A DNA stretch of 64,000 nucleotides from Verrucomicrobiia bacterium (GTDB lineage Bacteria > Verrucomicrobiota > Verrucomicrobiia > Palsa-1439): the NCBI GenBank assembly GCA_052146795.1, contig JBKQMH010000151.1, positions 1,502 through 65,501 on the forward strand. Direction: 5' to 3'. Positions 35,075 to 62,134 of the stretch are shown piece after piece. Under the pieces are notes generated by a model. It was not told where the DNA came from. It did no database searches and saw only the letters and a program-made list of their open reading frames with translations. Made by a program: the position numbers and the translations under genes. Position 1 is the stretch's first letter; every line of letters starts with the position of its first letter.

Positions 35075-35355
35075 GCGCACCGTTCCACGACCACGTGTCG
35101 CGCCAGCCGACCCGACACACCGATGCGCGCCCCCAGCAGCCGGAGGATGAGCGGGTTGCCCCGGCGGACGACTTCGAGTTCGCGTCCGACACACAACCCC
35201 ATCGCCATCAGCCGTTGCATCGCCTCCCCGGCCGGTTCGATGTGCTGGACGACAGCCCGCGAGCCGGACGGCAGTTCGTTCAAACTGCACCGGCCGTTGG
35301 CGGGTTCGGCGGCTGATTTGGCCGGTGTGGTAGGTTTTGTCGTCATGGTCGCCAT
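35071..35355 (-). CDS. feoA: Ferrous iron transport protein FeoA
   Basis: SH3-like FeoA motifs (LNELPSGSRAVVQHI, RLMAMGLCVGRELEVVRR, PLILRLLGARIGV). 4-nt overlap with feoB. Confidence 0.7.
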   Translation of the reverse strand: MATMTTKPTTPAKSAAEPANGRCSLNELPSGSRAVVQHIEPAGEAMQRLMAMGLCVGRELEVVRRGNPLILRLLGARIGVSGRLARHVVVERCA

Positions 35356-35677
35356 CGAGTTGTAACAAAGCCCGAGGGTCATTGCCACACCGCCCTGCCA
35401 TTCAACCCCATGCACCGGCTGGACTGCCCCATCAGGAAATCAGGCACCAACCTCGTCGACTGGGTCCACCCTCCAGGCGTTGCGCCCGGGGCAGGCGAAT
35501 AGGTTGGCGCGAGGACCGTTCGTTGACTCTCCGCGATCACAACGCCGAGCGCGGGAGTGAGCGGCATTCGAAATTTGTATGTCGTGCCGGGATAATCCGA
35601 CTCGGCCATGCACGTGCCCGTACCGACTGTGCGGTTGTCGGCGATCGCAACGTTATTCTCGTGACAGTGCATGGTCG

Positions 35678-37048: not shown

Positions 37049-37071
37049 AAATCAATCTCTCGGTCGCTCCG

Positions 37072-38262: not shown

Positions 38263-38287
38263 GACGCTTCCTCCCGGCGTTGCCGCG

Positions 38288-39445: not shown

Positions 39446-39462
39446 AGCCGCAGAATGATTTA

Positions 39463-39477
39463 GCACTGACGGTGCCA
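39463..39477 (-). promoter_or_regulatory. Candidate sigma-54 (-24/-12) promoter, minus strand reads TGGCACCGTCAGTGC
   Basis: GG-N10-GC spacing. Shares TGGCA-N-CTGC architecture with 45310..45324 and 61962..61976. 18 nt upstream of the ATG. Confidence 0.35.
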
Positions 39478-39654
39478 GCACGAGGAAGCGAAGTTCTAAC
39501 TAACGGTGCTGCAATGAACTACGCAGGAAAACACGATGAGGCCTGTGCCCTAAGAACCTGACATTTTGGCAAGATGGCACGAGCCATGTCGACAAGTTGT
39601 CGGCTTGGCCCACTTACTTCAGGAGTGACCGCTGTTTTGGCGCCCCATCTGATA

Positions 39655-41667
39655 CTAGAAGCGGACGCTGCAACTGGCGCTGACCAGATTCGCGACGTAG
39701 TTGTTGAAACCGCCGGTGCTGGACTCGTCGTACGAGTAGAACCCGTAGCGAAGGCGGGCGACCGCATTCTTGCTGATCTTGCGGCTGACGCCTGCCTGAA
39801 CTGCATGGCGTTGGAAATTCAATCCCAGTGGCAGACCGGCGGCGTCGTTGTTGCTGAAATTGTCCGAACACGAGTAGCTGTATTCAAGTGTGAGATCGGT
39901 CTTGTTGTCGATCGCGTAGCCGGTTGTGGCCATGACCGTATACACGTTGCCCCGGTACGTTTGGACGGCGGGGTTTTGATTGACGGGCGTGCTCGTCCGC
40001 GTGTCTTGCAACGAGAAGTAGCCGGTCAGGTACCATCGAGACATCGGCGTGACCGTCGCGCTCACGCTGTAAATATTCAAATCGTAATCGCCCGACTGGA
40101 GTGTGCCGCCGGGCGTAATCACCGGAACAGCTTCCGTGCTGGTGCGGATGTCGGTGGACACGAGCTGGTAGGTGAACGCGACGCTGAACCGCGAGCACGG
40201 GCGCAAGGTCAGTTTGGCCATGGCCTCGTCGGTGGTGAAATCCTGCGCGGTGATGAATCCGGGGTAGCCCACAACGGTGTCGATGGGATAGTCGTAGTCA
40301 TCGTGATCAATGTAATGTCGATAACTGCCGGCCAGCGTCATACGGGACAGCGGTGCGGTGTTGAAGCCAACGCGGTAGTCCTGTCGCAATGTTGTCTCGT
40401 TGGAGTCGACGGCGAGGCTGGAAGCGCCGTCCTCCGTCTCCGTTTGGTCCAAATCGATTTGCTCTTCGTTCCATTGGCCCTCGGCGTAGAGGGTGGTGTA
40501 CGGAATCTTCGTATACCGCATGCCGAGGGTTTCTGAGAGGCTCTCGGTGTTCTCGGACGAACGAATCAGGTTGGTCGTCGCCGCCGAACCGCCTTGTGCG
40601 AGAAGCGCGTCGGTAAAACCGTGCGTATCTGTTTTTTCCGCCTGCAATCCGCCGTAGAGAATGAGGCCCTTGAACGGCCCAAACATGGTATTCAGGTTGA
40701 CCACGTCGGAATCCAACTCAACCCCGATCGCATTGGCCGTCCCGCCGATGTCGAACGGCCCGACCGGCGGCGGGGTACTTACCTGGATGTCGCCGTTACC
40801 GGAGAGCGAGCTGTGCAGATAACCGAGCGACCAATACACCTTGTCATTCACATGGCAGTCCATATGGAACGTATTGTAGAAGGCATCCTGATGATAGTCC
40901 TCGTGAACTGTCACCGTTTGGCTGGAACTCGTGTTCAGGTCTATCGAGGTATCATCGCGCGTATCATCGCTGCCGAAGTGTTCATAGCGGAAGTCGTCCA
41001 ACAGGTGGACCTTGCTAATGTCATAGTCCACGCTCAATTTGACGATATCGGTGTGTTCTTTGATGCCGTCGGTCGAGGGATAAATCTTGCGCGTGTTCGC
41101 GCCCTGCGTGACGCCCCCCCACTCGACCAATGATTCGTCGCCATCCTGTGATTGTCGCTCATAGCCGACGGTGACTTTGGGGAGATTGGGCAAGGTCAGT
41201 CCAGCCTCGAAGAAGATATCGCTGTTATCGATCCGCAGGCCTTGATCCAGACGGAATGACGACGGCGTAAACGGCCCGTAGAAGCCCCCCTGGCTGTCGT
41301 AGTACTCGCGATATTCGGTGTACCCGGTCCGAACAAAACCGAAGTCCCGTTTCGTCAATTGTAACTGGAATTTGTAGTCGTGCTCATCAATGATAAACCG
41401 GCCTTCGCCATCGAGCGTCGTGTCTTTGTTGAGATCGTAATGCAGCGTTCCATCCTCAACGCCGCCGTTCCAGCCCGGCTCGATCCCGAGGTCTTCGCGG
41501 AATTTCTGGGCATTGCCGGACACCTTCGCATACGTCACCTCCGGCGTCCCGGACAACTGGATCGGCGAATTGGTTTGCGAATCATCGCCCCGGGCAGCGG
41601 CGAGCGTCATCAGTCCCAGCGGGAGGGTAACGAGGAGCACTTTGTAGAAGGTGTATTTCATCACCAT
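39655..41667 (-). CDS. Large outer-membrane beta-barrel of a porin-cytochrome conduit (MtrB/OmbB-like by context)
   Basis: 670 aa, signal peptide, alternating-hydrophobic strand pattern throughout, C-terminal ...SCSVRF. Immediately downstream of two multihaem cytochromes. Confidence 0.55.
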   Translation of the reverse strand: MVMKYTFYKVLLVTLPLGLMTLAAARGDDSQTNSPIQLSGTPEVTYAKVSGNAQKFREDLGIEPGWNGGVEDGTLHYDLNKDTTLDGEGRFIIDEHDYKFQLQLTKRDFGFVRTGYTEYREYYDSQGGFYGPFTPSSFRLDQGLRIDNSDIFFEAGLTLPNLPKVTVGYERQSQDGDESLVEWGGVTQGANTRKIYPSTDGIKEHTDIVKLSVDYDISKVHLLDDFRYEHFGSDDTRDDTSIDLNTSSSQTVTVHEDYHQDAFYNTFHMDCHVNDKVYWSLGYLHSSLSGNGDIQVSTPPPVGPFDIGGTANAIGVELDSDVVNLNTMFGPFKGLILYGGLQAEKTDTHGFTDALLAQGGSAATTNLIRSSENTESLSETLGMRYTKIPYTTLYAEGQWNEEQIDLDQTETEDGASSLAVDSNETTLRQDYRVGFNTAPLSRMTLAGSYRHYIDHDDYDYPIDTVVGYPGFITAQDFTTDEAMAKLTLRPCSRFSVAFTYQLVSTDIRTSTEAVPVITPGGTLQSGDYDLNIYSVSATVTPMSRWYLTGYFSLQDTRTSTPVNQNPAVQTYRGNVYTVMATTGYAIDNKTDLTLEYSYSCSDNFSNNDAAGLPLGLNFQRHAVQAGVSRKISKNAVARLRYGFYSYDESSTGGFNNYVANLVSASCSVRF

Positions 41668-41674
41668 GGCTCCG

Positions 41675-42481
41675 TCAATACCGCAGGTGCGCGTTAATGT
41701 CCGAACCGTGAACGGCCGTGTGACAACCCGCGCTGAAACAGGTGCCCTGTTCTAGGAAGCTGGTGGGCGCAAACCCGGCGTGCGGCATGTTCCCGATCGA
41801 TACGACGCCGGGCAGGGTGGGCGAGGCCACCTGCGCGTGGCACTTCAGGCACAGATTATTGTCGCGCTCGGTCAACATCTTCGGGTTGATCGAGCCGTGC
41901 ACGTTGTGGCAAGAGGTGCACCCTTCGCGCATCGCCTCATGCTCGTAGACGTGCGGCCGGGCCTGCTCGCGATGGCATTGCGCGCAATCCTCGTTCACGC
42001 GGCCGACCAGCATGCCCTTCGGTTTGAGAATGTCTTCGCCATGCGGATCGTGACAGGAGATGCAACTCATCCGCCCTTCCTTGACGGGATGATGGTATTG
42101 GAGACTAAACTCGGCGTTCTTATCGAGATGGCACTGGAAACACGCCTCGGGACTCTTGCCGGGGTTGACGATCAGTTTGCGGTCCCCGCCCGAATCCACA
42201 TGTAAACTGCCGGGACCGTGGCAACTCTCGCATCCTTGCCCTTCCACACGCGGTCCCTCGCCGGGAATCTGGATTCGCGCGTGCTCCGTAAGCTTGAAGT
42301 TCTTCACTTCCTTCTCGTGGCACAACGCGCATTGATCCATGCCGACGTACTTGGCGCCCGGAATCATCGGCGGGGCAAGAACCACCCGATCCACCGTCGC
42401 GCAGGAGATGATCAATGCGGCCAACGCGGCGCCACCGATGGCTGCGACTGTTACCGCAGTTGAGGATCGTGGGCTATTCAA
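41675..42481 (-). CDS. Periplasmic multihaem cytochrome c (7 CxxCH + 1 Cx4CH), lipoprotein-like signal
   Basis: CALCH, CESCH, CFQCH, CISCH, CAQCH, CTSCH, CLKCH, CFSAGCH. Signal with ...LIISC. Confidence 0.8.
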   Translation of the reverse strand: MNSPRSSTAVTVAAIGGAALAALIISCATVDRVVLAPPMIPGAKYVGMDQCALCHEKEVKNFKLTEHARIQIPGEGPRVEGQGCESCHGPGSLHVDSGGDRKLIVNPGKSPEACFQCHLDKNAEFSLQYHHPVKEGRMSCISCHDPHGEDILKPKGMLVGRVNEDCAQCHREQARPHVYEHEAMREGCTSCHNVHGSINPKMLTERDNNLCLKCHAQVASPTLPGVVSIGNMPHAGFAPTSFLEQGTCFSAGCHTAVHGSDINAHLRY

Positions 42482-42592
42482 GGATCACCTCTGGTACCAA
42501 TCTCTGCCTGCGAAGGGTCGGGCGGCCGCCTTCGACGACTTGCGTCCTCTGAGCCGCCGCCCGTGTCGAAACCCGCGCCATCGCGCCCACTC

Positions 42593-45280
42593 CTACCGGA
42601 GGACGGCGTACGGATAGGCGTTCGTGTACGTCCTGGTCACGTCATTGTAAAAGTTCGTGCTCAGATCGGTGTAGGTCGTTTGCAACAGGCGGATGGTGAA
42701 CTGCGAGTTGTGCACGCCCATGCTGCCTTCGAAATACTCCAGATTCCAATTCCAAGCGGCCTTGCGTTGCGCTGCCGTCAAAGCTACATTGTTGGTGGAA
42801 TAGCCGCCGCCGAAATAAATAGTGCTTCCATGCGCGATGGTATTGGAGAGACCCGTCGCGTACATCAGGGTCGCCAGATTGTTCAACAGTCCCTGCGTTT
42901 GCGTCTGGATGCCTTCGATCACGCCATTCGTATTGCCGTCATAATTTTGGAAGTTCGCCGCCTGATAGTCGAAGTTAGTGACCGGCCCGAAGCTCCCGTG
43001 GCACTGGTTGCACGCGGCAATGTTCTCCACCACATTGGTCATACCATTCGTGCCCACATATTGGTACGTCATCTCAAACGTGTGGGAGCCCAGCACGTTC
43101 GCATAGGTGGCAAGGTTGTTTGCCGTGATCACAACCGGCGCGTCATTGACGAGGATCGTGTCACCCGCCTTGAGTGAATACATATGGCATTCTTGGCAGC
43201 TCGCCAGGTACGTGTGGAAAGAATTCCCCATCTCCTGGCCATAATCGCAGGCGCCCAAGCCGGCGAACATTTCGCCAGCGGTGCTCATGTCCGGTGTAGT
43301 TGTCTGGTAGAACATCTGATTGGTACCGGAGCCGCTGACCTGGATTTGCGTCGGCCACATTCGCTCATTGTGGCAGACCATGCAGGCCGCGGACAAACCA
43401 GCATTGGTCACGGTGACGGTGCTGTTGGTCAACGCCAGATTCGCCGTGGTCAGGCTGTCGCCGAGGCCGATGCGAACCGTCGGGCTGTTCGTCAGTAGCG
43501 GGTTGCCCAATTGGACGGTGTCATAAACCCGCAATTGGTGGCGCGCCGAATCGGGCGCATTGCCGAAGTTGCTATGCGGATCGTGGCAGACCTGGCAGGT
43601 CAACGGCCCGGTGCCCAGGGCCACCGCGGTCAAGCCCGCCGCGTTGGTGATGGCGGCGGCGACCTGGTTCGTCGCGACGCTGATAAAGGCAGCGGGCGAA
43701 TGGCATCGCGCGCAGCCTGAATTGTTGCCCTCTGAATCGGATATGCTCTCAAACGCTCCCGCGTGCGGCGAAATCTCCCATTGCTGGACATTGACTTCCT
43801 CGGTGCCGCTCTGGTGGCAGCTCGAGCAGACCTTCTCATTCAGGCTGACGGACGGCGAACCCGGATGCTGGCTGCCGGGACCGTGGCAGTTTTCGCACTG
43901 GATGTTGGCCAGATTCTGGAGCTGAGCGGGCATCAACGCGTAGTTGCCCGCTTGGAGCACGGTGGGGAAATTCCAGCCAAGTTGTTGTTGGACAGCATAG
44001 AAATTGCCGTTGGCCGCCGCCGCCGGTGATTGGTTGAAGCCGACGGTATGGCATTGGAAGCAAGACTCGTTGTAATGCGAGGAGAGGACTCCGTCCACCC
44101 CGCGCTGGGCCATCGTCGCATGCCCCGTCCCTTGCCACGGCGTAACCATATCGGCCAGACCGACCAGGTTGCCCGGGCCATGGCAGATCGCGCAGAACTC
44201 CACACCGGTCCAGCTGGCCGCCGTGTTGGTGACAGTCTGGCCCGTGACATTGTCCTGAATCACGTATATGCCCTGGACGTCAGGCCGCAACGCAGCGATC
44301 AAACCATTGGTGTGTGTAAGGGCGGCGACGGAACCAGCAGGCTTGGACACGAGTGACCAGTTCATGCTATTGGTCGCCCCCTTATAAAAGGCGGTTACGC
44401 CTGCCGGAATATTCGGTTGTGCGGGCGTCTGGACGGAACACGCCACCGTGAAAACCCCGGTGCGTGTGACCGAGCCATTGCTGACGAGCACTTGGAAGCC
44501 GTACGTGGCTGCGCCCGCCTCTTCGTTGTCAAGGGAAATGCCGCTGGCAGCGCCAAACCGATGTTCTGGCGGCACATACGGTTGATTCGTGTAAACGCCG
44601 GCGGTGTGAAAGTCGATAGTGTTCACGAAGGGTGCTGTCGTCGTGGCCATATCCACGAAGTTCGTCAGCGCATCCGTGGTGAAACTGGTCGAGACAGCGC
44701 CGTTGGCGCTCAGCGCAACCGTCTTGCCGCTGGTCTGGCTCCAGGTGTACGTCAGCGTCCCTGCCAGGCCACTGGTGGGGACGATCGAGCCGTCCAGCGT
44801 TACCGAGTTTTCGAATCCCACATCGTAGAGGTTTGTCGTCACAGTCAGAGACCCCGACGGAACGGCGTTGGTGACGGAGGTGATGGTAACGTGCAATGTC
44901 TTTGAGCCGATGTTCTTGCGGTCAAAAGTCGCGGTCACGTGCACAGTCGCAACGCCAACGAAGTTGGTGGGGATGAGAACCGATGTGCCCGACACGTTCG
45001 TACTGGCGCCAACCGGCGGGTTGGTAATGGTGAGCACGGGGAACTTCGTCGTCCGGAATTTTTTGCCGCTGACCGTGGCCTTGACGACCAACGGACCCGT
45101 GTTGGTCACGACATTCAAATCGAACTGGTAGCTGAGCGTGCCTCCCGACACGATGGTCCCGGCAGCTGAGACAGTCCCAAGCTTGGCGGCAGCAGGCGCG
45201 GCGTGTGTTTGCAAAGCGACCATGGTAGACAGTGCGACGACCAGCGCACCGACTCGTTTCAGAAAATGTGTTCCCGTCAT
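42593..45280 (-). CDS. Large secreted/surface multihaem cytochrome c (9 CxxCH) with N-terminal beta-rich (Ig-like) region
   Basis: Signal peptide, ~330-aa Thr/Val-rich N-terminal region, then CAICH, CFQCH, CENCH, CSSCH, CARCH, CQVCH, CMVCH, CQECH, CNQCH. Confidence 0.8.
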   Translation of the reverse strand: MTGTHFLKRVGALVVALSTMVALQTHAAPAAAKLGTVSAAGTIVSGGTLSYQFDLNVVTNTGPLVVKATVSGKKFRTTKFPVLTITNPPVGASTNVSGTSVLIPTNFVGVATVHVTATFDRKNIGSKTLHVTITSVTNAVPSGSLTVTTNLYDVGFENSVTLDGSIVPTSGLAGTLTYTWSQTSGKTVALSANGAVSTSFTTDALTNFVDMATTTAPFVNTIDFHTAGVYTNQPYVPPEHRFGAASGISLDNEEAGAATYGFQVLVSNGSVTRTGVFTVACSVQTPAQPNIPAGVTAFYKGATNSMNWSLVSKPAGSVAALTHTNGLIAALRPDVQGIYVIQDNVTGQTVTNTAASWTGVEFCAICHGPGNLVGLADMVTPWQGTGHATMAQRGVDGVLSSHYNESCFQCHTVGFNQSPAAAANGNFYAVQQQLGWNFPTVLQAGNYALMPAQLQNLANIQCENCHGPGSQHPGSPSVSLNEKVCSSCHQSGTEEVNVQQWEISPHAGAFESISDSEGNNSGCARCHSPAAFISVATNQVAAAITNAAGLTAVALGTGPLTCQVCHDPHSNFGNAPDSARHQLRVYDTVQLGNPLLTNSPTVRIGLGDSLTTANLALTNSTVTVTNAGLSAACMVCHNERMWPTQIQVSGSGTNQMFYQTTTPDMSTAGEMFAGLGACDYGQEMGNSFHTYLASCQECHMYSLKAGDTILVNDAPVVITANNLATYANVLGSHTFEMTYQYVGTNGMTNVVENIAACNQCHGSFGPVTNFDYQAANFQNYDGNTNGVIEGIQTQTQGLLNNLATLMYATGLSNTIAHGSTIYFGGGYSTNNVALTAAQRKAAWNWNLEYFEGSMGVHNSQFTIRLLQTTYTDLSTNFYNDVTRTYTNAYPYAVLR

Positions 45281-45309
45281 AAATGGTTGTCCTCCATCTC
45301 CCTGCTATG

Positions 45310-45324
45310 GCAGTGGACGTGCCA
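45310..45324 (-). promoter_or_regulatory. Candidate sigma-54 promoter, minus strand reads TGGCACGTCCACTGC
   Basis: TGGCACG-N4-CTGC with GG-N10-GC spacing, 30 nt upstream of the cytochrome ATG (GGAGG SD between). A sigma-54-dependent regulator is encoded immediately upstream. Confidence 0.5.
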
Positions 45325-45626
45325 AGGTCATCGTCCAATTCTGTAAGCGTGGCGCTGACAGCTACTTACTTGAAACGGCATGCTGGCACAAGACAATAAA
45401 TCACTGGAAGCTGCGCGGATTCGCTCAAAGAAATGCGTGCTTCCGCGCAACAGGACATCAACGCGCCAACCCAATGGCACCGCTTTCAACGGTTTTCGGG
45501 GCAGAACCGGCACACGGCACGAGCAGTGCTAAGCCGATAACGGTATGCTCACAGGCAGGACGTTGGGACTCGTGCTCGCGCTGATCGGGGTGATCGTAAT
45601 CGCCCTGTCAGCGGTCGTGATCTACT

Positions 45627-47027
45627 TCAGCACTTCGCCGCGCTGAGTTCGCTGGTCGTCGCGGCCAGATACCCGTACTTGATCAACCGGCGACGTAACG
45701 CGTCGCGCTCGATCCCCAGCAATTCCGCCGCGTGACACTGGTTGGCGCCGGCGCGTTCCATCGCCTGGTAAATCAATTCGCGTTCCACCTCCGCCAGTGC
45801 CACACCACCGGGGGGCAATTGAATGAGGGAATGTCCATTCAACCGCGTGCCCAGCCGCAGCTCCGTCGGCAGGTGTTCGGGCAGCACCACCTCGGCTCGC
45901 TCGAGGATGACCAGCCGCTCGATAACGTTGCGCAACTCGCGCACGTTGCCCGGCCATGCGTACTGCTGCAGCATCGTGGCGGCTTCCGCCGAAAGTTTCT
46001 TGATTGGCCTGTTGAACTCCTCAGAAAACCGAGCGAGGTAATGTTCCGCCAGCAACGGGATGTCTCCCGCTTGTTCGCGCAAGGACGGCATCCGCAGCGA
46101 AATGACCTTGAGCCGATAGTACAAATCCTGTCGGAATTCTCCCTTGGCCACGGCCTCCTCAAGGTTCTTGTTGGTCGCGGCGATCACACGCACATCCACG
46201 GAGATGTTTTGCGTGCCTCCGACGCGTTGAAACTCTCGCGACTCCAACACCCGCAGCAATTTCGCCTGCAGCGCGGGTTTCATGTCACCGACCTCATCGA
46301 GCAACACCGTGCCGCCGTCCGCGAGTTCAAATAGCCCCCTCTTGGTATTCTTCGCGTCGGTGAACGCGCCGCGCTCATGTCCGAACAACTCGCTTTCGAT
46401 GAGCGCGTCCGGAATTGCCGAGCAGTTGATCCCCATGAACGGCTGATTGGCCCGCGCGCTGCCGAAATGAATCGCGCGCGCCGCCAACTCCTTGCCCGTC
46501 CCGTTCTCGCCGTCGATGAACACCGTCGTGGCGTCGCTCTCGCCGACCCGCGCAATCAACTCTCGCACCTGGCGCATCTGCGGACTCACCCCGACAAGGT
46601 TTTCCAAGCCGAACTTGCGGCGTTGCGCGCGGCGGATGCGCGTGACTTCCCGACGCAGTTTCAAGTCCTCGCGCGCCTTTTCCAGCGCCACGCGCACTTC
46701 GTCAAACTCGAACGGCTTGCACAGATAATTGTACGCGCCGAGCCGCACGCATTCGACGGCGCGCGCGATCGACGTTTCCGCGGTCAACATGATGACGGCG
46801 ATGTCGCGCTCCAGATTCCTGATCTCTTGCAGCACTTGTACGCCGTCGATTCCCGGCAATCGTAAATCCAGCAGCACCAGGTCGAAACCGTCCTCGCGGA
46901 TGAGGTTCAGTCCCTCCTCGCCCGTCGGCGCCGATTCGACCTCGTAGCCTTCGCGGCCCAGCTTTTGTTGAAGTGACCAACGTACGAGTTTCTCGTCGTC
47001 GATAATGAGTATCTTAGTTCTCGACAT
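45627..47027 (-). CDS. Sigma-54-dependent response regulator (NtrC family)
   Basis: Receiver (ILIIDDE), AAA+ sigma-54 activation domain (GESGTGKE-like FIDGENGTGKE, GAFTDA), C-terminal HTH. Confidence 0.9.
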   Translation of the reverse strand: MSRTKILIIDDEKLVRWSLQQKLGREGYEVESAPTGEEGLNLIREDGFDLVLLDLRLPGIDGVQVLQEIRNLERDIAVIMLTAETSIARAVECVRLGAYNYLCKPFEFDEVRVALEKAREDLKLRREVTRIRRAQRRKFGLENLVGVSPQMRQVRELIARVGESDATTVFIDGENGTGKELAARAIHFGSARANQPFMGINCSAIPDALIESELFGHERGAFTDAKNTKRGLFELADGGTVLLDEVGDMKPALQAKLLRVLESREFQRVGGTQNISVDVRVIAATNKNLEEAVAKGEFRQDLYYRLKVISLRMPSLREQAGDIPLLAEHYLARFSEEFNRPIKKLSAEAATMLQQYAWPGNVRELRNVIERLVILERAEVVLPEHLPTELRLGTRLNGHSLIQLPPGGVALAEVERELIYQAMERAGANQCHAAELLGIERDALRRRLIKYGYLAATTSELSAAKC

Positions 47028-48540
47028 GAGCGAATTCCTTCCGTGTTTCCATTCCGCCTGGCGACGCAATCATCTCGGGTTTGCAAACGGCCAACTCCAG
47101 GGTAATTGTCGTTCCTTTTCCCGGCTCGCTATCCACCGCGATGGTGCCGTGGTGCTTCTCAATGATCGTGCGGGTGATCGACAGTCCGAGGCCTGTGCCG
47201 CGATGTTTCGTGGTGAAAAATGGGGAGAAAATCTTGGCGAGATGCTCGCGCGCAATCCCAACTCCTGTGTCCCGCACCCGGATGCGGACAATGCCGCCGC
47301 CATCGCGCTTGGCTGATTCTGTGGAGACGGTGAGCGTCCCGCCGCCGGGCATGGCCTGAACGGCGTTAAGCAGGATGTTGAGCAGTGCCTGCTGCATTTG
47401 CCCCGGATCGGCGAAGATGTGCGGCAGATCGGCGGCCAACCGCTCCTCGATTTTGATATGAAACTTCTGGGCGTCGGGCCGTACCAGCGCGAGCATCGGC
47501 CGGATGAATCCGTGCACGTCGCAGGGCGCCATCTCCGGATCACGGAGCCGCGCGAATTCGAGAAGATCGTGCAGCGTGCGGTTGAGCCGGGTGATCTGGC
47601 GATGAATCTCAGCGACGATTTCGGCCCGCTGGCCGTTGAGGTTGTTCTCTTCCGATAACACCTCCACCGCCGCGCCGATTCCGGCAAGCGGATTACGAAT
47701 TTCGTGCGCGATGCCCGAGGCCAGCTCGCCGATCGATGCCAGCTTGCCGGCTTGCTGGATTTGCTTCTGATGCGATTCCTCAAGTTCCCGCGTGGCGTTG
47801 TCGAGGCTTTGCACCATCGCGTTAAAACCGCTGGCGAGTTCGCCGATTTCATCCCCGGTCTCGGTCACCGCTCGGGCGTCGAGGTCGCCCGTTTGCACTT
47901 TGCGCATCTGTTCGAGTACGCGGCTGACGGGCTGCGTGACGAGCCGCACAATGAGCAGCCACAGCACGATGCCGACCAGCACGAAAATCACCACCCCGTA
48001 CACGATCAGCAGATTGCGGTTGCTGGCGACGCTGGCCTCGGCGGGGGCGAGTGATTTCTCCACGACGATGGCGCCGATGACGGCGGATTTCGGATCGTGG
48101 CAACGCTGGCAACTCTCGCTGTTGAGCACCGGCCGCATCACCACGGAGAGCCGCTGGCCGTCCTCGACGCGGGTGCCCTGCAACACCTGATTTTCGGTGA
48201 ACAACTCCGGCGGCACCGACATCACCGCGCGTTGCACCTCCTGCGTGTCGGTCGAGAACACCACCGTGCCGTCGGGTTTGATGAGGCGTCCGCGCCAAAT
48301 CTCGTCCGCGCCCTTTAGCTTTTGCAGGAACCCCTGCACCTCTTCATGGCGTTCGCTGAGCATGACGCCGTTGAGGTACTCGTGGACGAGCGACGCGGCG
48401 ATCAGGTTTTGCGCCTGGGTGCGCTCGTGCCACCACGCGCTCTGCACGCGAATGACAAAGTACGTGTAGATCGCAATCACCACGGCAACCGTCACGCCGA
48501 CCGCAACCAACATTTTCGCGGTGAGGTTGCGTCTAAACAT
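47014..48540 (-). CDS. Sensor histidine kinase with periplasmic haem-c (CxxCH) sensor domain
   Basis: TM-periplasmic domain-TM-HAMP-HisKA (AHEIRNPL)-HATPase (GTGLGLSI). The periplasmic segment contains CQRCH (nt 48097..48111). Confidence 0.8.
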   Translation of the reverse strand: MFRRNLTAKMLVAVGVTVAVVIAIYTYFVIRVQSAWWHERTQAQNLIAASLVHEYLNGVMLSERHEEVQGFLQKLKGADEIWRGRLIKPDGTVVFSTDTQEVQRAVMSVPPELFTENQVLQGTRVEDGQRLSVVMRPVLNSESCQRCHDPKSAVIGAIVVEKSLAPAEASVASNRNLLIVYGVVIFVLVGIVLWLLIVRLVTQPVSRVLEQMRKVQTGDLDARAVTETGDEIGELASGFNAMVQSLDNATRELEESHQKQIQQAGKLASIGELASGIAHEIRNPLAGIGAAVEVLSEENNLNGQRAEIVAEIHRQITRLNRTLHDLLEFARLRDPEMAPCDVHGFIRPMLALVRPDAQKFHIKIEERLAADLPHIFADPGQMQQALLNILLNAVQAMPGGGTLTVSTESAKRDGGGIVRIRVRDTGVGIAREHLAKIFSPFFTTKHRGTGLGLSITRTIIEKHHGTIAVDSEPGKGTTITLELAVCKPEMIASPGGMETRKEFAHVEN

Positions 48541-49819
48541 GGCCGCTCGCCTCCATCGGGCCGATTACCCTCACATGCTCCGTCGCAGACGCGTGCGAGT
48601 GGCCGCCAATATCCGGATGCTCGAACAACGGCAGGTAACGCGCCGCCAACCCGAAGAGTACGACCCCAAACGAAAGCAGATTCAGTACGACGGTGATCTC
48701 AATCCATGACGGGAAGTAGTTCGAGTGGGTCGCCGGCAACAGGCCGATCCAGGCGACGTTGAGCCGATTCAGGTTAACCCCCAGGATGACGGGAATCGCC
48801 GCGGCAAACGCCCAGCGCCGACGGCCCGACCATCGCGTCTTCAGCACCACGAACAATGGCAGCGTCAGCAGCAGCATCTCCAGGGTGAACGTGAAACCCT
48901 GAAGCGGGCAGCGGAATATATACATCCACGCATTCCGCGCCGTGAGATCCGCGATGCGGAGAAACAGATAGAGAAACAGTAGCGGCGTCATCCCCTTGGC
49001 CAGCGACGTGAGCACGCGCGGTTCCAGCGGCTTGTGGAATATCCAGAACGACAAGGCGGACACGAAGATCGCCATCGCAAAACCAGAAATGAGCGCGCTA
49101 ATGAAGAACAGGATCGGCAGTAGCGGCGTATACCACAGCGGCAACAGCTTGGTGGGTAGAATGAGGAACAGTGAGCCGAGCGACGACTGGTGCAACGTCG
49201 AGAGGATTACGCCGCAAATGACAAAGGGGACGGTGATCGCGTGTACGGCACGTGACACGCGCGTCCAGCCCAGTTTATCGAGCAGGATCGGCGCGAACTC
49301 CACGGACAGCACGCCCGTGTAGAGCATGACGCACCAGGACACTTCAAACAGTACCGAGTGATGTTGCCAGTAGAAGATCGGTCGCCAGATTTGGTGGTAT
49401 CGACCGAGATCGACGAGCAACGCGCCGGAGGCCGACAGCATGTAGCCGAGATACGCAGCCAGAACCACCGGCCGAAGGATCGGGTAAAACGTGCGGATGC
49501 GAAAGATATACACCATGCACGCCGTGAGGAACCCGCCCGCCGCAAAGGCGATTCCGCAGACAACCAACGCTTTCCAGATGCCCCATGGAAATTGATCGGT
49601 AAGATTCGTCACCGCGCCGAGGCCCAGTGCATACCGTGAGGTGAACCCGTAACCTCCCAGACCCCAGAGCACGATCAGCAATGACCAGCCAAATACGCCC
49701 GACAGGTGCTTGGGAGTTTGACGGCCGGAGAGCAACCAGCAAGCGAACACCGCACCGCACATCATGACCAAGACGCCGATGACGCGGAACAATGCCAGGA
49801 TCCAGTTAAAATCGTTCAT
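48533..49819 (-). CDS. NrfD/PsrC-family integral membrane quinone-interacting subunit (module A)
   Basis: Start at MNDFNWIL. About 10 TM segments; paralog of 51574..52878 (DQFPWGIW, YWQHHSVLFEV). Confidence 0.7.
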   Translation of the reverse strand: MNDFNWILALFRVIGVLVMMCGAVFACWLLSGRQTPKHLSGVFGWSLLIVLWGLGGYGFTSRYALGLGAVTNLTDQFPWGIWKALVVCGIAFAAGGFLTACMVYIFRIRTFYPILRPVVLAAYLGYMLSASGALLVDLGRYHQIWRPIFYWQHHSVLFEVSWCVMLYTGVLSVEFAPILLDKLGWTRVSRAVHAITVPFVICGVILSTLHQSSLGSLFLILPTKLLPLWYTPLLPILFFISALISGFAMAIFVSALSFWIFHKPLEPRVLTSLAKGMTPLLFLYLFLRIADLTARNAWMYIFRCPLQGFTFTLEMLLLTLPLFVVLKTRWSGRRRWAFAAAIPVILGVNLNRLNVAWIGLLPATHSNYFPSWIEITVVLNLLSFGVVLFGLAARYLPLFEHPDIGGHSHASATEHVRVIGPMEASGHV

Positions 49820-50673
49820 GGCCGCTCCGTCGGGTTCCGTGTCCGCCAGCGAACCACCGCGCTCAGGACCAAGCCGACACCGATGACCACAAATGGCACC
49901 TTCGAAATGGCCTTCCACGTCAGCGATGGCAGCGGATCCTTTGGCAGGCCGCGCGGGAACCCGAGATCTTCCGGCGCGGTATCGGACAAGTACAACCACG
50001 ATGTGCCACCGGCAACGTCTTCGCCGTATAGCGACGTGTAGCGGTTCGGTTGCGTGTCCAGCCGGGCCTTCGCCTCCTGCAACAACTCGCGGCGTTTCCC
50101 AAACTTCAGCGTGACGGTCGGACACGCGGCGACGCAGGCCGGGGATTGGCCTTTCGCCTGACGGTCGGCGCAGAAATCACATTTGGCGACGCGCGGCATG
50201 AACGCGTTGTTCCACTCGTACTTCGGCACACCGAACGGACAGGCCAGAATGCAGTAGCGGCAGCCGATACAGATGCTCTCGTTGTAAACGACCGGCCCGC
50301 TCGCGGTCTTCTCCAATGCCCCGACGGGGCAGACCGACACACACGCCGGGTCCAGGCAGTGCATGCATTGCCGTTTCACCGGCTGTTTGGGTTTCGTGTT
50401 CCCGTCCCGGAAATCGATGAACGTCCGCGTGCGAAAACTCAGTTTGCCGTCGCCGGCGCCGTAACCAATTGCTTCGGTGGGAAGGGCATCGAAGCCCGCT
50501 CGTACCCGGCAGGCGTTCTCGCAGGCCCGGCAGCCGATGCAGCGCGTGAGGTCCACCAAGACGCCGGCCGATGCTGACGGCTCAACCGGCGATTCCGCGA
50601 GAAGGGCGCGAGCAGACGCGATCGTCAACGCGCCGGTCGCCGCGGTCTTGAAGAATTGTCGACGGGAAATCAT
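49816..50673 (-). CDS. Tat-exported 4x[4Fe-4S] ferredoxin subunit (NrfC/PsrB/HybA-like) with C-terminal TM anchor (module A)
   Basis: MISRRQFFK twin-arginine signal. Four Cys clusters (CIGCRACENAC, CMHCLDPACVSVCP, CIGCRYCILACP, CDFC...CVAACP). Confidence 0.85.
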   Translation of the reverse strand: MISRRQFFKTAATGALTIASARALLAESPVEPSASAGVLVDLTRCIGCRACENACRVRAGFDALPTEAIGYGAGDGKLSFRTRTFIDFRDGNTKPKQPVKRQCMHCLDPACVSVCPVGALEKTASGPVVYNESICIGCRYCILACPFGVPKYEWNNAFMPRVAKCDFCADRQAKGQSPACVAACPTVTLKFGKRRELLQEAKARLDTQPNRYTSLYGEDVAGGTSWLYLSDTAPEDLGFPRGLPKDPLPSLTWKAISKVPFVVIGVGLVLSAVVRWRTRNPTERP

Positions 50674-51587
50674 CGCGGCGGCTCCCCGTGTTTCTTTCGG
50701 CGGAAATGCGGCAACGCGACGCCCAGAAAAATGCCCAACAGGAACGACAGGCCGACCACGGGCGGAAACACGCGGCGGTTGGCCGCGAGTATCTCGCGCA
50801 ATTTGGCGGTTTCCGTTTCCAACTCAGTGAGACGCGCCTCGAGTTTTTCCGGTGCGACCGCTTTGAGTCGGTGGACCTCTTCTTCTAGCGTGGCGTTTTC
50901 GTGGCTCGCGTGCACCATATCGCGGTGGCAATTGGCGCAGGTCTCGGCACCGACGCCGAACGTGTGGCCGCGCACGCCGAGGCCGCGGGTCTTCATACCG
51001 ACGCCCTTCACCTCGGGCATGTGACAGCTCAGGCAGTGCAGGCCTTCAATCGCGTGGGTCGCATGGGAGAAGTCCTTGAGCCGTTCCGTGTGGCAGGTGC
51101 CGCACATTTGGTCGGGCTGGTCTTTGTGCAGTTGCATCCCATGCATCTTGTGGCAATCGAAACAGCGGATGTTCTTCTGGCCGTGCGCACTGACCCGCCA
51201 TTCGCCATAGGTAATGGCATGGCAGCTTTGGCACACTTCGGACGTGACGGGCAGCGTCAACTTCGATTTGTCCGGGTGATCGTCCTTCATGACGCCGTGG
51301 CAGGACTCGCAACTGACACCGTCATGCGAAACCTTGCCCGATTTCGGGTCGGACCGGCTGGTGTGGCAGACGAGGCATTCCCATTTCTTGCCCTCGGTCG
51401 TCCACTCGTTCAGGAACATGTCGTTTATCGTTTGGGCGTGGGGCGAGCCCTGCCAATCCTTCACCTCCTGCTCGTGGCACAGCGCACACCGCTCGGATTC
51501 TTTCTCTTCACCCTGTGCGCGCACGGCGGTCGGCACGAGTGCCAGCACGGCTGCAAGGACAATCACGGTTTGTCTAGGAAGACACAT
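50670..51587 (-). CDS. Octahaem cytochrome c with C-terminal TM anchor (module A)
   Basis: 8 CxxCH in ~250 aa; coiled-coil then hydrophobic helix at the C-terminus. Confidence 0.85.
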   Translation of the reverse strand: MCLPRQTVIVLAAVLALVPTAVRAQGEEKESERCALCHEQEVKDWQGSPHAQTINDMFLNEWTTEGKKWECLVCHTSRSDPKSGKVSHDGVSCESCHGVMKDDHPDKSKLTLPVTSEVCQSCHAITYGEWRVSAHGQKNIRCFDCHKMHGMQLHKDQPDQMCGTCHTERLKDFSHATHAIEGLHCLSCHMPEVKGVGMKTRGLGVRGHTFGVGAETCANCHRDMVHASHENATLEEEVHRLKAVAPEKLEARLTELETETAKLREILAANRRVFPPVVGLSFLLGIFLGVALPHFRRKKHGEPPR

Positions 51588-52878
51588 CTAGTGGACTCTC
51601 TTTCTCGTCTGCGACCTTCGATCCTGGTTCCGAAACTCCTTGTGGATGTTGCGGCTTCTTGCCGATGTCGGGATGCTCGAACAGGGGGAGGTAGCGCGCC
51701 GCCAACCCGAAACACACCACCCCCAGGGAAATCAGATTGAGCGTGACCACCAGTTCCTGCCACGAGGGCACATAAATGGCTTCCGCCGAGGGAAGCATGT
51801 GAAACCACGCGACGTTCAGACGATTCACAATCACCGCGGCCACCACGAGAGCCGCCGCCCAGAAAACGATCCGCGGCTGGCGAACCAATCGTGGACTCAG
51901 CAGAATAAAGGTGGGCACCAGCAGCAAAGTCATCTCCAGGAAAAAGGTGAAGGTTTGGAAGGGGAGCGGCGCCAGGTACACCCACTTGCCCCGCACCGTC
52001 ATGTCGATCACGCGGATGGTCAGCAACAGGAGGATCACCAGCGGAATCACCCGCGCCAGCGAGGTGATGATCGGCGCCTCCAGACTCCGCTGGAACGCCC
52101 GTGCGGAAAGGGTGGACTCCACAATCGTCATCGCCAGGCCTACGGCCACGGCGCTGATGAGAAAATACAGCGGCAGCAAGGGCGAATACGTGGTCGGCCA
52201 CAATTTCTCGGGCACGATCAGGAACAGCGCTCCCAGCGACGATTGGTGCAGCGTGGATAGAATGACGCCGGCAATTACCACCGGAATCGTAATCGAGTGG
52301 ACAAACCGCAGCGCGCGATGCCAATGAAACCTTTCCAACAGAAGCGGCAGGAACTCCACAGTGAGCACGATGTTGTACAACGTCACGCACCAGCCGACCT
52401 CGAACATCACCGAATGATGCTGCCAGTAAATCATCGGATGCCAGATGTTATACGGCCGGCCCAGATCGACCATCAGTCCCCCGACCACGAGCAGGTAGCC
52501 CAGATACGCCGTGAGCACCGCCGGCCGCAGGATCGGGTAGAATTTCCTCAGCCCAAAGATATACACCGCGCCGGCAGTCAAAAATCCGCCTGCGGACAAG
52601 GCGACACCGCTGAGCACATCGAACCCAATCCAGATGCCCCACGGAAACGTATCCGAAAGGTTCGTCATTGCGCCCAACCCGCCCGTAAACCGCGTCACGA
52701 CCGCCATGCCCCCCAGCGCCCAGAGAATCGGCAACAGCACCCACCACGCCAAGCCGAGGCTGACCTGCTGCGGTACTTTTCGGCCAGCCAGCAACCAGCA
52801 CGCACCCACTGCCAGCCCACCCATGACCAGCGCGGCGACCGCCTTGAGCAGAATCACCAGATAGACCGACTCAGACAT
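51574..52878 (-). CDS. NrfD/PsrC-family membrane subunit (module B)
   Basis: Paralog of 48533..49819. Confidence 0.7.
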   Translation of the reverse strand: MSESVYLVILLKAVAALVMGGLAVGACWLLAGRKVPQQVSLGLAWWVLLPILWALGGMAVVTRFTGGLGAMTNLSDTFPWGIWIGFDVLSGVALSAGGFLTAGAVYIFGLRKFYPILRPAVLTAYLGYLLVVGGLMVDLGRPYNIWHPMIYWQHHSVMFEVGWCVTLYNIVLTVEFLPLLLERFHWHRALRFVHSITIPVVIAGVILSTLHQSSLGALFLIVPEKLWPTTYSPLLPLYFLISAVAVGLAMTIVESTLSARAFQRSLEAPIITSLARVIPLVILLLLTIRVIDMTVRGKWVYLAPLPFQTFTFFLEMTLLLVPTFILLSPRLVRQPRIVFWAAALVVAAVIVNRLNVAWFHMLPSAEAIYVPSWQELVVTLNLISLGVVCFGLAARYLPLFEHPDIGKKPQHPQGVSEPGSKVADEKESPLDVSS

Positions 52879-53737
52879 GCACAAGCCTCCGGTTTCGCAA
52901 CCGGTAAATCCCGCTGAGCACCAGTGCCAGCGTGACCACCACGATCGGCACCTTCGAGAGCGCCTTCCACGTCAAGGATGGAAGGGCGACCGACGGCAGG
53001 TCAGTGCGAAACCCCAGTTGGTCCATGGGCACGTCCGAGAGGTAAATCCACGCAGTGCCGCCGACCACCTTGTCGCCGTAGATCGAGACGTAACGCTTGG
53101 GATTGGCCGATAACCGCAGCAGCGCTTCGCGCAGAATCTCCGGCCGCTTGCCAAACCTCAGTGTGCCGGTGGGGCACGCCGCCACGCACGCCGGCACCCG
53201 GCCGTCAGCCACGCGGTCGTCGCAGAAATCACACTTGCCCACGCGCGGCGTCACCCCCTCGTTCCATTCGTAGCGAGGTACGCTGAACGGGCAGGCAATC
53301 ATGCAGTAGCGGCACCCAATGCACCGCGACGCCTCATACACCACCGAGCCGCGCGGCGTCTTGTGCAACGCCGCCACTGGACAGGCCGAGACGCACGCTG
53401 CATCCAGACAGTGCATGCATTGTTTCTTGACGGAGAATCTGGTCTTGGCGGCTGGCTGACCGTGCGCCGTCCGAAAGTCCACAAACGTCCAGGTTGTGAA
53501 CGAGAGCCGACCTTCGCCGGGACCGTAGCCGAAACCCTCCGTTGGCAGGCCCGGCCGGTTCTGGCGCACCCGGCAGGCATTTTCACAGGCGCGGCAGCCG
53601 ATACAGCGGGTCAGGTCCACCAACACGCTGGATTGCTGGTCCGGATTTACCGGCGGTTCGTCGGCCGTGGCGCGCACCGGCAACAGTATCGCTCCCAACC
53701 CCGCCGCGCCCGTCGTGAGAAATCGGCGGCGCGACAT
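52871..53737 (-). CDS. Tat-exported 4x[4Fe-4S] ferredoxin subunit (module B)
   Basis: Starts MSRRRFLTTGAAGLG (ATG at 53735..53737). The 562-aa track ORF is an out-of-frame N-extension. Paralog of 49816..50673. Confidence 0.85.
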   Translation of the reverse strand: MSRRRFLTTGAAGLGAILLPVRATADEPPVNPDQQSSVLVDLTRCIGCRACENACRVRQNRPGLPTEGFGYGPGEGRLSFTTWTFVDFRTAHGQPAAKTRFSVKKQCMHCLDAACVSACPVAALHKTPRGSVVYEASRCIGCRYCMIACPFSVPRYEWNEGVTPRVGKCDFCDDRVADGRVPACVAACPTGTLRFGKRPEILREALLRLSANPKRYVSIYGDKVVGGTAWIYLSDVPMDQLGFRTDLPSVALPSLTWKALSKVPIVVVTLALVLSGIYRLRNRRLVHV

Positions 53738-53838
53738 TCCCCCGGGGTGGTCATTCTGAGCGCGGGGAAGAAGCTTTGGATCGCCTCCCTTGTGGGGATC
53801 TTCGCTTCGGTCAGGGTGAAAGACTGGAAAAGCGGCGT

Positions 53839-54759
53839 TCATTTCGACAGTCCCTCCCTCGTAGGTTTCCGACTGCGGCGATGGACCACGGCGTACTCGA
53901 TGGCCACGCCGAGACAAAAGGCCACAACCACGATTACGGAGAACACCCGTCGGTTGGCCCGCACCGCCGCGCGCAGTTGGTCGTTTTCCTTCCGCTCGTC
54001 GGTGACCTGTTTCTGCAGTGTTTCCGGAGTCATCTCCTTGAGGCGCTGCACCTCGCTCTCCAAGACGGCAATGTCGCTGCGGCTGTGCACCATTTCCTTG
54101 TGGCAAATGGCACAGGTCTCCGCGCCAACACTGAACGCGTGCCCGCGCGCGCCGGTCCCCTTGATCTTCAGCCCGGCGTTCATCACCTCCGGCATGTGGC
54201 AATCGATGCACTTCACGCCCTTGACGTGATGGGTCGCGTGCGAGTAGTCCTTCAACCGTTCCGTGTGGCAGGTGCCGCACATTTGGTCCGGGTCGTCCTT
54301 GCGCAGCTTCATCTCGTGCATCTTGTGGCAGTCGAAGCAGCGGATGTTCTTCTGGCCGTGACGGCTGATACGCCACTCGCCGTAGGTAATGCTGTGACAG
54401 GACTGACACGTCTCGGCGGTCACGGGCAACAGCTTCTTCACCTTGTCGGGATGGTCCGCAGTCGCCGGCCCGTGACAGGACTGGCAACTCACGCCGGCAT
54501 GAGAGAACGTGCCGGTCTTGCGGTCGTACTGGCTGGTGTGGCAGACGAGGCATTCCCACTTCTCACCTTCCTGGTCCCACTCGGCGAGAAATCGGCTGTT
54601 GATGGTGTGCGCGTGTGGCGAGTCCGTCCACTCTTTCGTTTCCTGCTCGTGGCAGAGGGCGCAGGTGTCGGATTCCTTTTCCTCGTCGGCCCCCCACACG
54701 GGCGCCAGTGGGACGAGCGTCACCAGCAACGCCGCAACCATCAATTCGGAGCGAGTCAT
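53839..54759 (-). CDS. Octahaem cytochrome c with C-terminal TM anchor (module B)
   Basis: Start at MTRSELMVAALL (signal peptide). 8 CxxCH. Paralog of 50670..51587. Confidence 0.85.
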   Translation of the reverse strand: MTRSELMVAALLVTLVPLAPVWGADEEKESDTCALCHEQETKEWTDSPHAHTINSRFLAEWDQEGEKWECLVCHTSQYDRKTGTFSHAGVSCQSCHGPATADHPDKVKKLLPVTAETCQSCHSITYGEWRISRHGQKNIRCFDCHKMHEMKLRKDDPDQMCGTCHTERLKDYSHATHHVKGVKCIDCHMPEVMNAGLKIKGTGARGHAFSVGAETCAICHKEMVHSRSDIAVLESEVQRLKEMTPETLQKQVTDERKENDQLRAAVRANRRVFSVIVVVAFCLGVAIEYAVVHRRSRKPTREGLSK

Positions 54760-61961: not shown

Positions 61962-61976
61962 GCAGTGGCCTTGCCA
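61962..61976 (-). promoter_or_regulatory. Candidate sigma-54 promoter, minus strand reads TGGCAAGGCCACTGC
   Basis: 13/15 identical to the element at 45310..45324, 31 nt upstream of the resB ATG. Confidence 0.45.
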
Positions 61977-62134
61977 GCAAGTCGCAACAAACCAACAGAA
62001 CTTTTGCAACAAGCTGATTGACAGGGCATTGCGGTGCGCGAAATCACGCACACACGGAATATGGCGAACCTGATAGGAGCGACAGATTGGCGGGAAGGAA
62101 CCATTTCTTGACAGCTTGTCATCCAGTCAGGAAA

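Follow-up and report, generated by a model that had tools for sequence, protein, structure and literature searches.

What does a histidine kinase with a predicted haem c outside the cytoplasm report to its cell, and which genes respond to it? The question is raised by a 64,000-nucleotide (nt) stretch of DNA from a Verrucomicrobiia bacterium (GTDB lineage Bacteria; Verrucomicrobiota; Verrucomicrobiia; Palsa-1439; NCBI GenBank assembly GCA_052146795.1, contig JBKQMH010000151.1, positions 1,502 to 65,501 of the forward strand), called the window below. On its minus strand, the window encodes a 508-residue sensor histidine kinase and, directly after it, a sigma-54 activator, with genes for quinol-oxidising cytochrome complexes on one side of the pair and genes for a predicted outer-membrane electron conduit on the other (Table 1). 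Our analysis points to the conduit as the target. We consider it probable, at roughly 0.6, that the haem-c kinase and its sigma-54 regulator set conduit transcription according to whether the pool of periplasmic cytochromes is oxidised or reduced, or in response to a ligand of the haem. What is new here is a defined enhancer and sigma-54 promoter module, together with the conserved link of the sensor to an extracellular-electron-transfer (EET) island.

The haem-c sensor domain and its ligands

The kinase gene is an intact open reading frame (ORF) with an ATG start and an N-terminus that is common to the orthologs. Its product consists of a first transmembrane helix (TM1), a loop of 146 residues, a second transmembrane helix (TM2), HAMP, HisKA and HATPase_c, in this order, and is a class-I, HAMP-containing histidine kinase by its Pfam domains and the location of its motifs. 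A 19-residue hydropathy scan found two hydrophobic segments only, centred on residues 13–25 and 179–197. Three Lys or Arg residues stand ahead of TM1, and the 17 residues past TM2 contain four and run into HAMP. Because there are only two transmembrane segments, the charges follow a positive-inside pattern and HAMP comes after TM2, the loop (about residues 31–176, approximately 146 residues) is predicted to be extracytoplasmic in an N-in topology. The first-pass annotation of this DNA, made from the sequence alone, had described a loop of about 150 residues between two transmembrane helices with a single CxxCH at 48097..48111. Reading of the minus strand gives exactly these coordinates, and the predicted topology places CQRCH outside the cytoplasm rather than in it.

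By profile, sequence and modelled fold, the loop is a single-Cache (sCache) haem-c sensor domain of the type found in GSU0935 and GSU0582 of Geobacter sulfurreducens. PF21563 (Mcp40H-20_sensor) covers residues 52–164 of the kinase, corresponding to profile positions 3–111 of 112, with 33.4 bits against a gathering score of 27. A phmmer comparison of the loop with PDB sequences matched 3b42_A, the periplasmic sensor domain of GSU0935, with E=1.5e-6 and 3b47 (GSU0582) weakly. The AlphaFold2 (AF2) model of residues 28–180 reached a predicted local distance difference test (pLDDT) score of 81.9 and runs from a long N-terminal helix through a second helix, two strands, a short helix, two more strands and the short CxxCH helix to a further strand and a C-terminal helix. 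In this model, C144–H148 lie in the short helix between strands and Met60 lies on the N-terminal helix. When the model was compared with the PDB by Foldseek, chains A and B of 3b42 came out on top (E=2e-8) and 3b47 was found with E=2e-4; the matches after 3b42 were the single-Cache domains of WalK, DctB, KinD and CitA. The alignment to GSU0582 and GSU0935 that the first-pass annotation had proposed therefore upheld its claim of a periplasmic haem-c sensor domain like those of Geobacter, with PF21563 above its cut-off and 3b42 recovered by both sequence and fold. In a 2026 preprint the family is named sCache_heme, its CxxCH is approximately 99% conserved and HAMP-HisKA-HATPase_c is among its common architectures (PMC12889525). 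The kinase itself is thus unsurprising: by architecture, it is an ordinary member of a known sensor family (PF21563/sCache_heme), and the sensor is not a new kind.

In GSU0935, the haem is bound by Cys140, Cys143, His144 and Met60 (PMC8396549). C144, C147, H148 and M60 of the kinase align with these residues, respectively (the chain index of 3b42 is offset by 34 from the GSU0935 numbering, so that Met60 has chain index 26). A search of 5.8 billion proteins yielded 120 orthologs of the kinase with 62–93% identity, all from Verrucomicrobia metagenome bins, and PF21563 is present in nearly all of them. Loss of the motif in orthologs, which the first-pass annotation had named as a possible objection, was not observed: each of the 120 has exactly one CxxCH, with both cysteines and the histidine invariant and with 20 different combinations at the two x positions. 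M60 is present in 119 of the 121 aligned sequences (query and 120 orthologs), the remaining two being gaps, and is the sole other absolutely conserved candidate ligand in this alignment.

The same ligand set is found far outside the orthologs. A word-indexed search with the loop alone returned ortholog fragments only and no distant relatives. An exhaustive phmmer search of 1.84 billion representatives, also with the loop alone, gave 87 hits, and every non-fragment among them has CxxCH at the equivalent place. Alignment of 56 sequences, comprising the query, GSU0935 and 54 single-domain relatives of 22–38% identity, retained the methionine in 54 and CxxCH in 55, the one sequence without CxxCH being truncated. 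A Pfam scan of 71 distant relatives found PF21563 in 59, HAMP in 59, HATPase_c in 38 and PF11845 in 12; other relatives have cyclase, methyl-accepting chemotaxis protein (MCP) or PAS/GAF outputs. Several distant relatives, P0140, P0142, P0144 and P0148 among them, carry three tandem haem-c Cache domains before HAMP, with three CxxCH motifs spaced approximately 125–135 residues apart; P0140 at least ends in an adenylate/guanylate cyclase domain. Another distant relative, P0141, lies on a contig of only 1.6 kb, so gene context is described below for Verrucomicrobia alone.

The regulator, the conduit and the promoter module

The gene after the kinase encodes an NtrC-type response regulator, for which Pfam gave 230.8 bits to Sigma54_activat, 104.6 bits to Response_reg and 40.5 bits to HTH_8. 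The phospho-accepting aspartate D54, a Walker A motif (GENGTGK) and a Walker B motif (VLLDEV) were located. Regulator and kinase genes share 14 nt, from the regulator ATG at 47027 to the kinase stop at 47014, an overlap that the first-pass annotation had likewise reported for the kinase and an NtrC-type sigma-54 activator; the kinase gene in turn starts inside the upstream NrfD-like gene, with 8 nt in common. Judged from this arrangement, kinase and regulator genes are translationally coupled and the regulator is the cognate partner of the kinase.

Beyond a gap of 346 nt, the regulator gene is followed by two multihaem cytochrome genes and the gene of a 670-residue protein without a Pfam match. 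The AF2 model of the latter (pLDDT 83) is all-beta, with a signal peptide followed by approximately 28 long beta-strands and a C-terminal Phe. Its best match in the PDB was MtrB of the Shewanella Mtr complex (6r2q_B, E=3e-15, TM-score 0.68–0.70), and TonB-dependent receptors came well behind with a TM-score of approximately 0.4. On this modelled fold, the genes at 39655..45280 encode an MtrB-like porin–cytochrome conduit. The location of the kinase between a Cbc array and conduit genes, as first annotated, was confirmed, with Cbc and CbcL genes on one side and the porin–cytochrome conduit on the other.

The gap between regulator and conduit contains two palindromes, TGCGCGGAAGCACGCA and TGAGCGAATCCGCGCA, and a predicted sigma-54 element, TGGCACGTCCACTGC. 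The proximal palindrome starts 103 nt upstream of the TGGCA of TGGCACGTCCACTGC, and the 22-bp spacing of the palindromes is about two helical turns. Read from its sequence, this combination of a palindrome pair and a sigma-54 element is a standard enhancer-dependent promoter layout. The strict sigma-54 consensus, TGGCAC-N5-TTGC, had no hits in the window, the actual element having CTGC; the relaxed pattern was TGGCAY-N5-YTGC. Single palindromes with up to two mismatches were not enriched in the window (13 observed vs 15.8 expected). Pairs with 22-bp spacing were found twice in the window and not once in 200 first-order Markov simulations of it. The second of these pairs, TGCGCCAAATCGCGCA and GGCGCGAAATCGCGCA, lies upstream of the tetrahaem cytochrome gene together with TGGCACGTAAGTTGT, which is the weaker candidate because its -12 element is GT rather than GC. 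The kinase's partner is the only enhancer-binding protein encoded nearby, and we infer that it binds the palindromes.

Synteny was compared by tblastn with the window proteins across 24 loci, comprising 8 metagenome loci and 16 GTDB species genomes; single loci are cited below by L numbers. The close relatives, without exception, are uncultured Verrucomicrobiia sampled from peat, palsa and soil. The kinase gene stands directly after the gene of a membrane quinol-oxidising/cytochrome complex in all 24. This preceding gene encodes NrfD in most loci, a CbcL-like fusion in L003, L004, L007, L008 and L015, and a cytochrome b in L005. The regulator gene follows the kinase gene in every locus long enough to show it, and the conduit follows the regulator in 17 loci.

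The module was found directly upstream of the first conduit gene in 18 orthologous loci, and the 103-nt spacing was kept in 14 of them (L001, L006, L009–L013, L015, L016, L018, L020 and L022–L024). L017, L019 and L007 deviate, with 101, 104 and 92 nt, respectively, and in L008 a lone palindrome precedes the element by 104 nt. Within these loci of approximately 21 kb, a complete module recurs at one other place only, the tetrahaem-cytochrome site of L006 and L008. At this site, L017 has a bare pair with no sigma-54 element detected, as do L013 and L018, where the spacing is 23 bp; L020 has a further bare pair just after the regulator gene. No module was found upstream of the kinase operon in L003, L007, L010, L016 and L023, and autoregulation is therefore not a general feature.

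In three close relatives, L009 (97% identical), L018 and L022, approximately 1.4 kb (about 12911..14300 of these loci) is inserted between the regulator gene and the enhancer–promoter module, and the module stayed beside the conduit genes, not beside the regulator. In the window, an ORF for a 33-residue hydrophobic peptide (MLTGRTLGLVLALIGVIVIALSAVVIYFSTSPR, approximately 45545..45646 on the plus strand) is convergent with the regulator gene and meets it at the 3' end. The peptide sequence is recognisable in L001 and L006, and L007 has a 33-residue gene call at the equivalent place. A sigma-54-like motif, TGGCATCGCGGTTGC at 56800..56814 (minus strand), was rejected as a promoter: it has no palindrome pair nearby, and approximately 0.94 matches per window are expected by chance. 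The motif falls within the 3' end of the first CbcL-like gene, 75 nt short of the second gene's ATG, and is probably a chance match.

Table 1. Positions of the kinase, its partner, the regulatory sites and the surrounding genes in the window
Feature	Position	Strand	Details and basis
Sensor histidine kinase gene, 508 residues	47014..48540	-	intact ORF, ATG start; Pfam domains; 120 orthologs
TM1, about residues 10–30	48451..48513	-	after MFRRNLTAK (3 positive charges); hydropathy, charge count
Predicted extracytoplasmic haem-c sCache sensor domain, about residues 31–176	48013..48450	-	PF21563, 3b42_A match, AF2, Foldseek
Met60 codon, predicted distal (sixth) haem ligand	48361..48363	-	aligned to GSU0935 Met60
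CQRCH haem-c attachment motif: C144, C147, proximal ligand H148	48097..48111	-	minus-strand TGC CAG CGT TGC CAC at 48111..48097
TM2, about residues 177–199	47944..48012	-	hydropathy
HAMP, residues 196–246	47803..47955	-	PF00672, 51.7 bits, cut-off 25
HisKA, residues 271–333	47542..47730	-	PF00512, 60.7 bits, cut-off 26.9; H279 in HEIRNPL box, codon 47704..47706
HATPase_c, residues 378–483	47092..47409	-	PF02518, 100.1 bits, cut-off 26.4; G1 DTGVG at residue 424, G2 GTGLG at residue 448
NtrC-type response regulator, 466 residues: REC, sigma-54 AAA+, HTH_8	45627..47027	-	Pfam, NCBIfam, motifs
Gap between regulator and conduit, 346 nt	45281..45626		
Candidate enhancer (upstream activating sequence): 16-bp palindromes TGCGCGGAAGCACGCA, TGAGCGAATCCGCGCA	45412..45449	.	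TGCGCG-N4-CGCGCA type; starts 22 bp apart
Predicted sigma-54 -24/-12 element TGGCACGTCCACTGC	45310..45324	-	GG-N10-GC; about 30 nt before ATG of 895-residue cytochrome
895-residue cytochrome	42593..45280	-	9 CxxCH
268-residue cytochrome	41675..42481	-	7 CxxCH and one Cx3-4CH site
670-residue predicted outer-membrane beta-barrel	39655..41667	-	no Pfam match; AF2, Foldseek
Second palindrome pair TGCGCCAAATCGCGCA, GGCGCGAAATCGCGCA	62932..62969	.	22 bp apart
Second sigma-54-like element TGGCACGTAAGTTGT	62829..62843	-	-12 is GT, not GC; 104 nt after pair, upstream of tetrahaem cytochrome gene
Third, weaker site before ResB: one palindrome	62035..62050		
Third, weaker site before ResB: TGGCAAGGCCACTGC	61962..61976	-	
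Cbc-like set 2, NrfD	48533..49810	-	Pfam
Cbc-like set 2, 4Fe-4S protein	49816..50673	-	Pfam
Cbc-like set 2, multihaem cytochrome	50670..51587	-	Pfam
Cbc-like set 1, NrfD	51574..52884	-	Pfam
Cbc-like set 1, 4Fe-4S protein	52871..53800	-	Pfam
Cbc-like set 1, multihaem cytochrome	53866..54759	-	Pfam
Two CbcL-like fusions, each 11 CxxCH and cytochrome b561	56723..58930, 54756..56726	-	CxxCH counts; Pfam Ni_hydr_CYTB and multihaem families
CcsA (haem attachment)	58902..59699	-	
HemA	59635..60720	-	
ResB	60717..61931	-	
Tetrahaem cytochrome, 201 residues	62195..62800	-	
Cytochrome b	63026..63997	-	

Mechanism and competing explanations

By analogy with the Geobacter domains for the haem, and from the conserved palindromes and promoter for the regulator, we propose the following course of events. 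System II machinery would attach one haem covalently to the sensor domain in the periplasm; such attachment is available because System II cytochrome-c maturation genes (ResB, CcsA) lie in the same gene string. The haem would probably be high-spin with His and water as ligands when ferric and low-spin with His and Met60 when ferrous. In the Geobacter domains, the Met60 switch is redox-linked, with midpoint potentials of -156 mV for GSU0582 and -251 mV for GSU0935 (PMC8396549). Met60 is carried by the N-terminal helix, which is continuous with TM1; its binding and release may shift this helix and thereby alter the state of HAMP and the kinase. Such ligand switching could plausibly act on HAMP as a piston or scissor movement. 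The phosphorylated regulator would then bind the two palindromes in front of the conduit genes and activate the adjacent sigma-54 promoter, driving expression of the MtrB-like conduit, and a second, weaker copy of the module may act in front of the tetrahaem cytochrome gene. Overall, how oxidised or reduced the cytochrome pool is, or the presence of a haem ligand, would determine the amount of outer-membrane electron-export machinery, with either polarity possible.

A more specific proposal names the electron source. The kinase haem might be reduced directly by the multihaem subunits (CbcL-like and Cbc-like) of its own operon, so that the pair would measure the electron load leaving the quinol pool and induce the conduit in a feed-forward manner through the enhancer code. 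We offer this as a tentative idea, well short of even odds. If it is true, uncultured peatland Verrucomicrobia would possess a self-contained EET regulator whose regulon is readable from the sequence of metagenome-assembled genomes (MAGs).

Several observations weigh against control of the conduit by a redox-sensing haem kinase. The PF21563 score is modest at 33.4 bits, and a Pfam scan at E<=0.01 gave no match to PF11845 (Tll0287-like) in the kinase. The Foldseek TM-score to 3b42 is low (0.44–0.52), with a haem-pocket geometry that is predicted only; a low value is to be expected when a monomeric model is compared with a domain-swapped dimer, the form seen in the crystal. In the regulator, the sigma-54-contact loop (residues 220–225) reads GAFTDA, with the F and T of the canonical GAFTGA kept; the same variant occurs in six orthologs (L001, L003 and L005–L008). 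A search confined to the window found neither rpoN nor a match to the RpoN box. L003 and L004 keep the kinase–regulator pair and have no conduit, and no palindrome or sigma-54 module was found there. The palindromes are assigned to this regulator by adjacency only. Finally, two related sCache_heme domains of Pseudomonas have been characterised as NO binders (PMC12889525).

Because of these NO binders, a gas sensor is the main rival. Protein and output would be the same, and the signal would be a diatomic gas (NO, CO or O2) that displaces Met60 from the ferrous haem, gating the electron-export genes on nitrosative or oxic conditions. The domains of GSU0582 and GSU0935 take up NO whether oxidised or reduced, and CO in the reduced state, each gas displacing Met60 (PMC8396549), and the ligand set of His and a labile Met is conserved in the kinase. 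In vitro gas binding is, however, common to many haem proteins, and no genes for NO detoxification or denitrification lie beside the pair within the window. The conserved neighbours in the 24 loci are instead quinol oxidases and the outer-membrane conduit, which fit control by the electron acceptor or by redox state. A gas as the natural signal appears rather doubtful to us.

The haem could also be structural or constitutive, with the true input being a small molecule in the Cache pocket or contact with the Cbc/CbcL complexes or periplasmic cytochromes. The sCache fold is that of CitA, DcuS, DctB and WalK, whose binding partners are small molecules or proteins, and the kinase gene is translationally coupled to an NrfD subunit gene. 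In the solved homologues, however, the haem fills the site between the N-terminal helices and the sheet. Moreover, the distal Met is as conserved as CxxCH across the distant relatives, which argues that the coordination chemistry is the function under selection. We regard a structural or constitutive haem as improbable. That CxxCH is no haem site at all, but arose by chance or serves an otherwise ordinary Cache sensor as a disulfide or metal site, would suit a protein with one motif only and a haem attachment predicted from sequence, but is hardly credible for a motif that aligns with the haem-binding Cys140, Cys143 and His144 of a solved structure, is invariant in the 120 orthologs and present in 55 of the 56 distantly aligned sequences while its inner residues vary, and encoded in the same gene string as cytochrome-c maturation genes.

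The first-pass annotation had called the kinase the likely redox input for this island. The regulatory role gains indirect support from the conserved palindromes and the sigma-54 promoter before the conduit; redox as the signal is what we infer. The conserved island link and the module turn the "likely redox input" into a specific, testable circuit. Haem-c Cache sensors are structurally known, but a physiological output has been assigned to hardly any; in this case it is readable from the DNA. The circuit offers a testable model of how abundant uncultured Verrucomicrobiia of peat and soil turn on EET to iron or humic substances, a process that diverts carbon from methanogenesis in peat, and the module provides a signature by which other members of the regulon could be recognised in MAG sequences.

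Gene neighbourhood and known systems

Judged by gene spacing, the kinase and regulator genes are the last two of an operon that includes the CcsA, CbcL-like and Cbc-like genes, with ResB and HemA just upstream. The gene junctions measure -29 to +65 nt from CcsA to the regulator and -14 to +65 nt over the Cbc-like sets. A scan of 45200..52000 for sigma-70 promoters and terminators gave no signal above shuffle expectation, a result that is consistent with one long operon and proves nothing. By tblastn, the two tandem Cbc-like sets are 53–60% identical to each other and the two CbcL-like copies 34% identical. Most orthologous loci have one Cbc-like set and one CbcL-like gene, versus two of each here. 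In the raw list of ORFs, a longer but spurious one (52871..54559) obscures the set-1 cytochrome gene (53866..54759). Directly 3' of the tetrahaem cytochrome gene, at 62135..62170 on the minus strand, a GC-rich hairpin with a T-run (GCCGCGCGAGA...TCTCGCGCGGC TTTTTCG) looks like an intrinsic terminator. If it is one, the tetrahaem cytochrome gene would form a transcription unit separate from ResB onward.

On the other side, the porin gene is followed by three radical-SAM genes, one with SPASM (35678..39481, minus strand), as in most orthologous loci. In the window, these are followed by a FeoB ferrous-iron transporter gene (33068..35401, minus strand). Possible roles of these genes lie in the maturation of cytochromes or peptides and in taking up the Fe(II) that is produced. 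Farther away, a 503-residue protein (28684..30195, plus strand) has an N-terminal cytochrome bd subunit-I-like domain and a C-terminal part with two CxxCH (Cytochrome_CBB3 family), and a 341-residue membrane protein without a Pfam match comes after it. A second, unrelated two-component pair (23318..25506, minus strand) consists of a HAMP-HisKA-HATPase_c kinase without CxxCH and an OmpR-type regulator, and is adjoined by a 1070-residue ORF at 18215..21427.

Among known systems, Tll0287 (5b82; PF11845, formerly DUF3365) shares with the kinase a Cache/PAS-like domain and one covalent haem c, and is grouped with GSU0582 and GSU0935 in the 2026 preprint (PMC12889525). It differs in being a stand-alone protein, and its family profile is the one that found no match in the kinase. 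The closest counterparts of the sensor are the G. sulfurreducens chemoreceptors GSU0935 and GSU0582 (3b42 and 3b47), homologous to the kinase loop by both sequence and fold. Their one CxxCH, like that of the loop, stands on a short helix flanked by strands, and their distal Met likewise belongs to the N-terminal helix; in GSU0935 and the kinase this residue is Met60 in both, and the domain lies between two transmembrane helices with HAMP after it. The outputs differ: HisKA/HATPase_c acts toward a sigma-54 activator in the predicted pathway here, whereas the Geobacter proteins end in an MCP signalling domain. Identity of the kinase to GSU0935 is only approximately 23%, and the hosts are a Verrucomicrobium and a member of the Desulfobacterota. 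The haem properties of the kinase are given here by analogy.

The regulatory side resembles BccR (GSU0598), a sigma-54 response regulator that induces the cbcBA quinol oxidase as the redox potential falls in G. sulfurreducens (10.1101/2021.04.15.440034). Its kinase was not identified in that work, and its neighbour GSU0599 is cited as carrying a haem-binding sensor motif. In both organisms, a regulator with REC, sigma-54 AAA+ and HTH domains is encoded beside bc-type or multihaem quinol oxidases, and respiratory cytochrome genes are controlled, here by prediction, from a -24/-12 promoter. The arrangement differs in that bccR is divergent from its target, whereas the kinase and regulator genes here end the oxidase operon and their clearest predicted target is the conduit. 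GSU0599 and BccR were compared with the kinase and regulator through their description in the literature.

The conduit has a precedent in the verrucomicrobial porin–multihaem cytochrome cluster of He et al. 2017 (PMC5615132), which has the same three genes in the same order: an extracellular multihaem cytochrome, a periplasmic cytochrome with approximately 8 haem sites and a large porin of at least 20 strands. Its sources are likewise Verrucomicrobia of humic or peat-type habitats. The terms histidine kinase and sigma-54 are absent from that paper; the locus described here adds to the known conduit a linked kinase–regulator pair and a promoter module.

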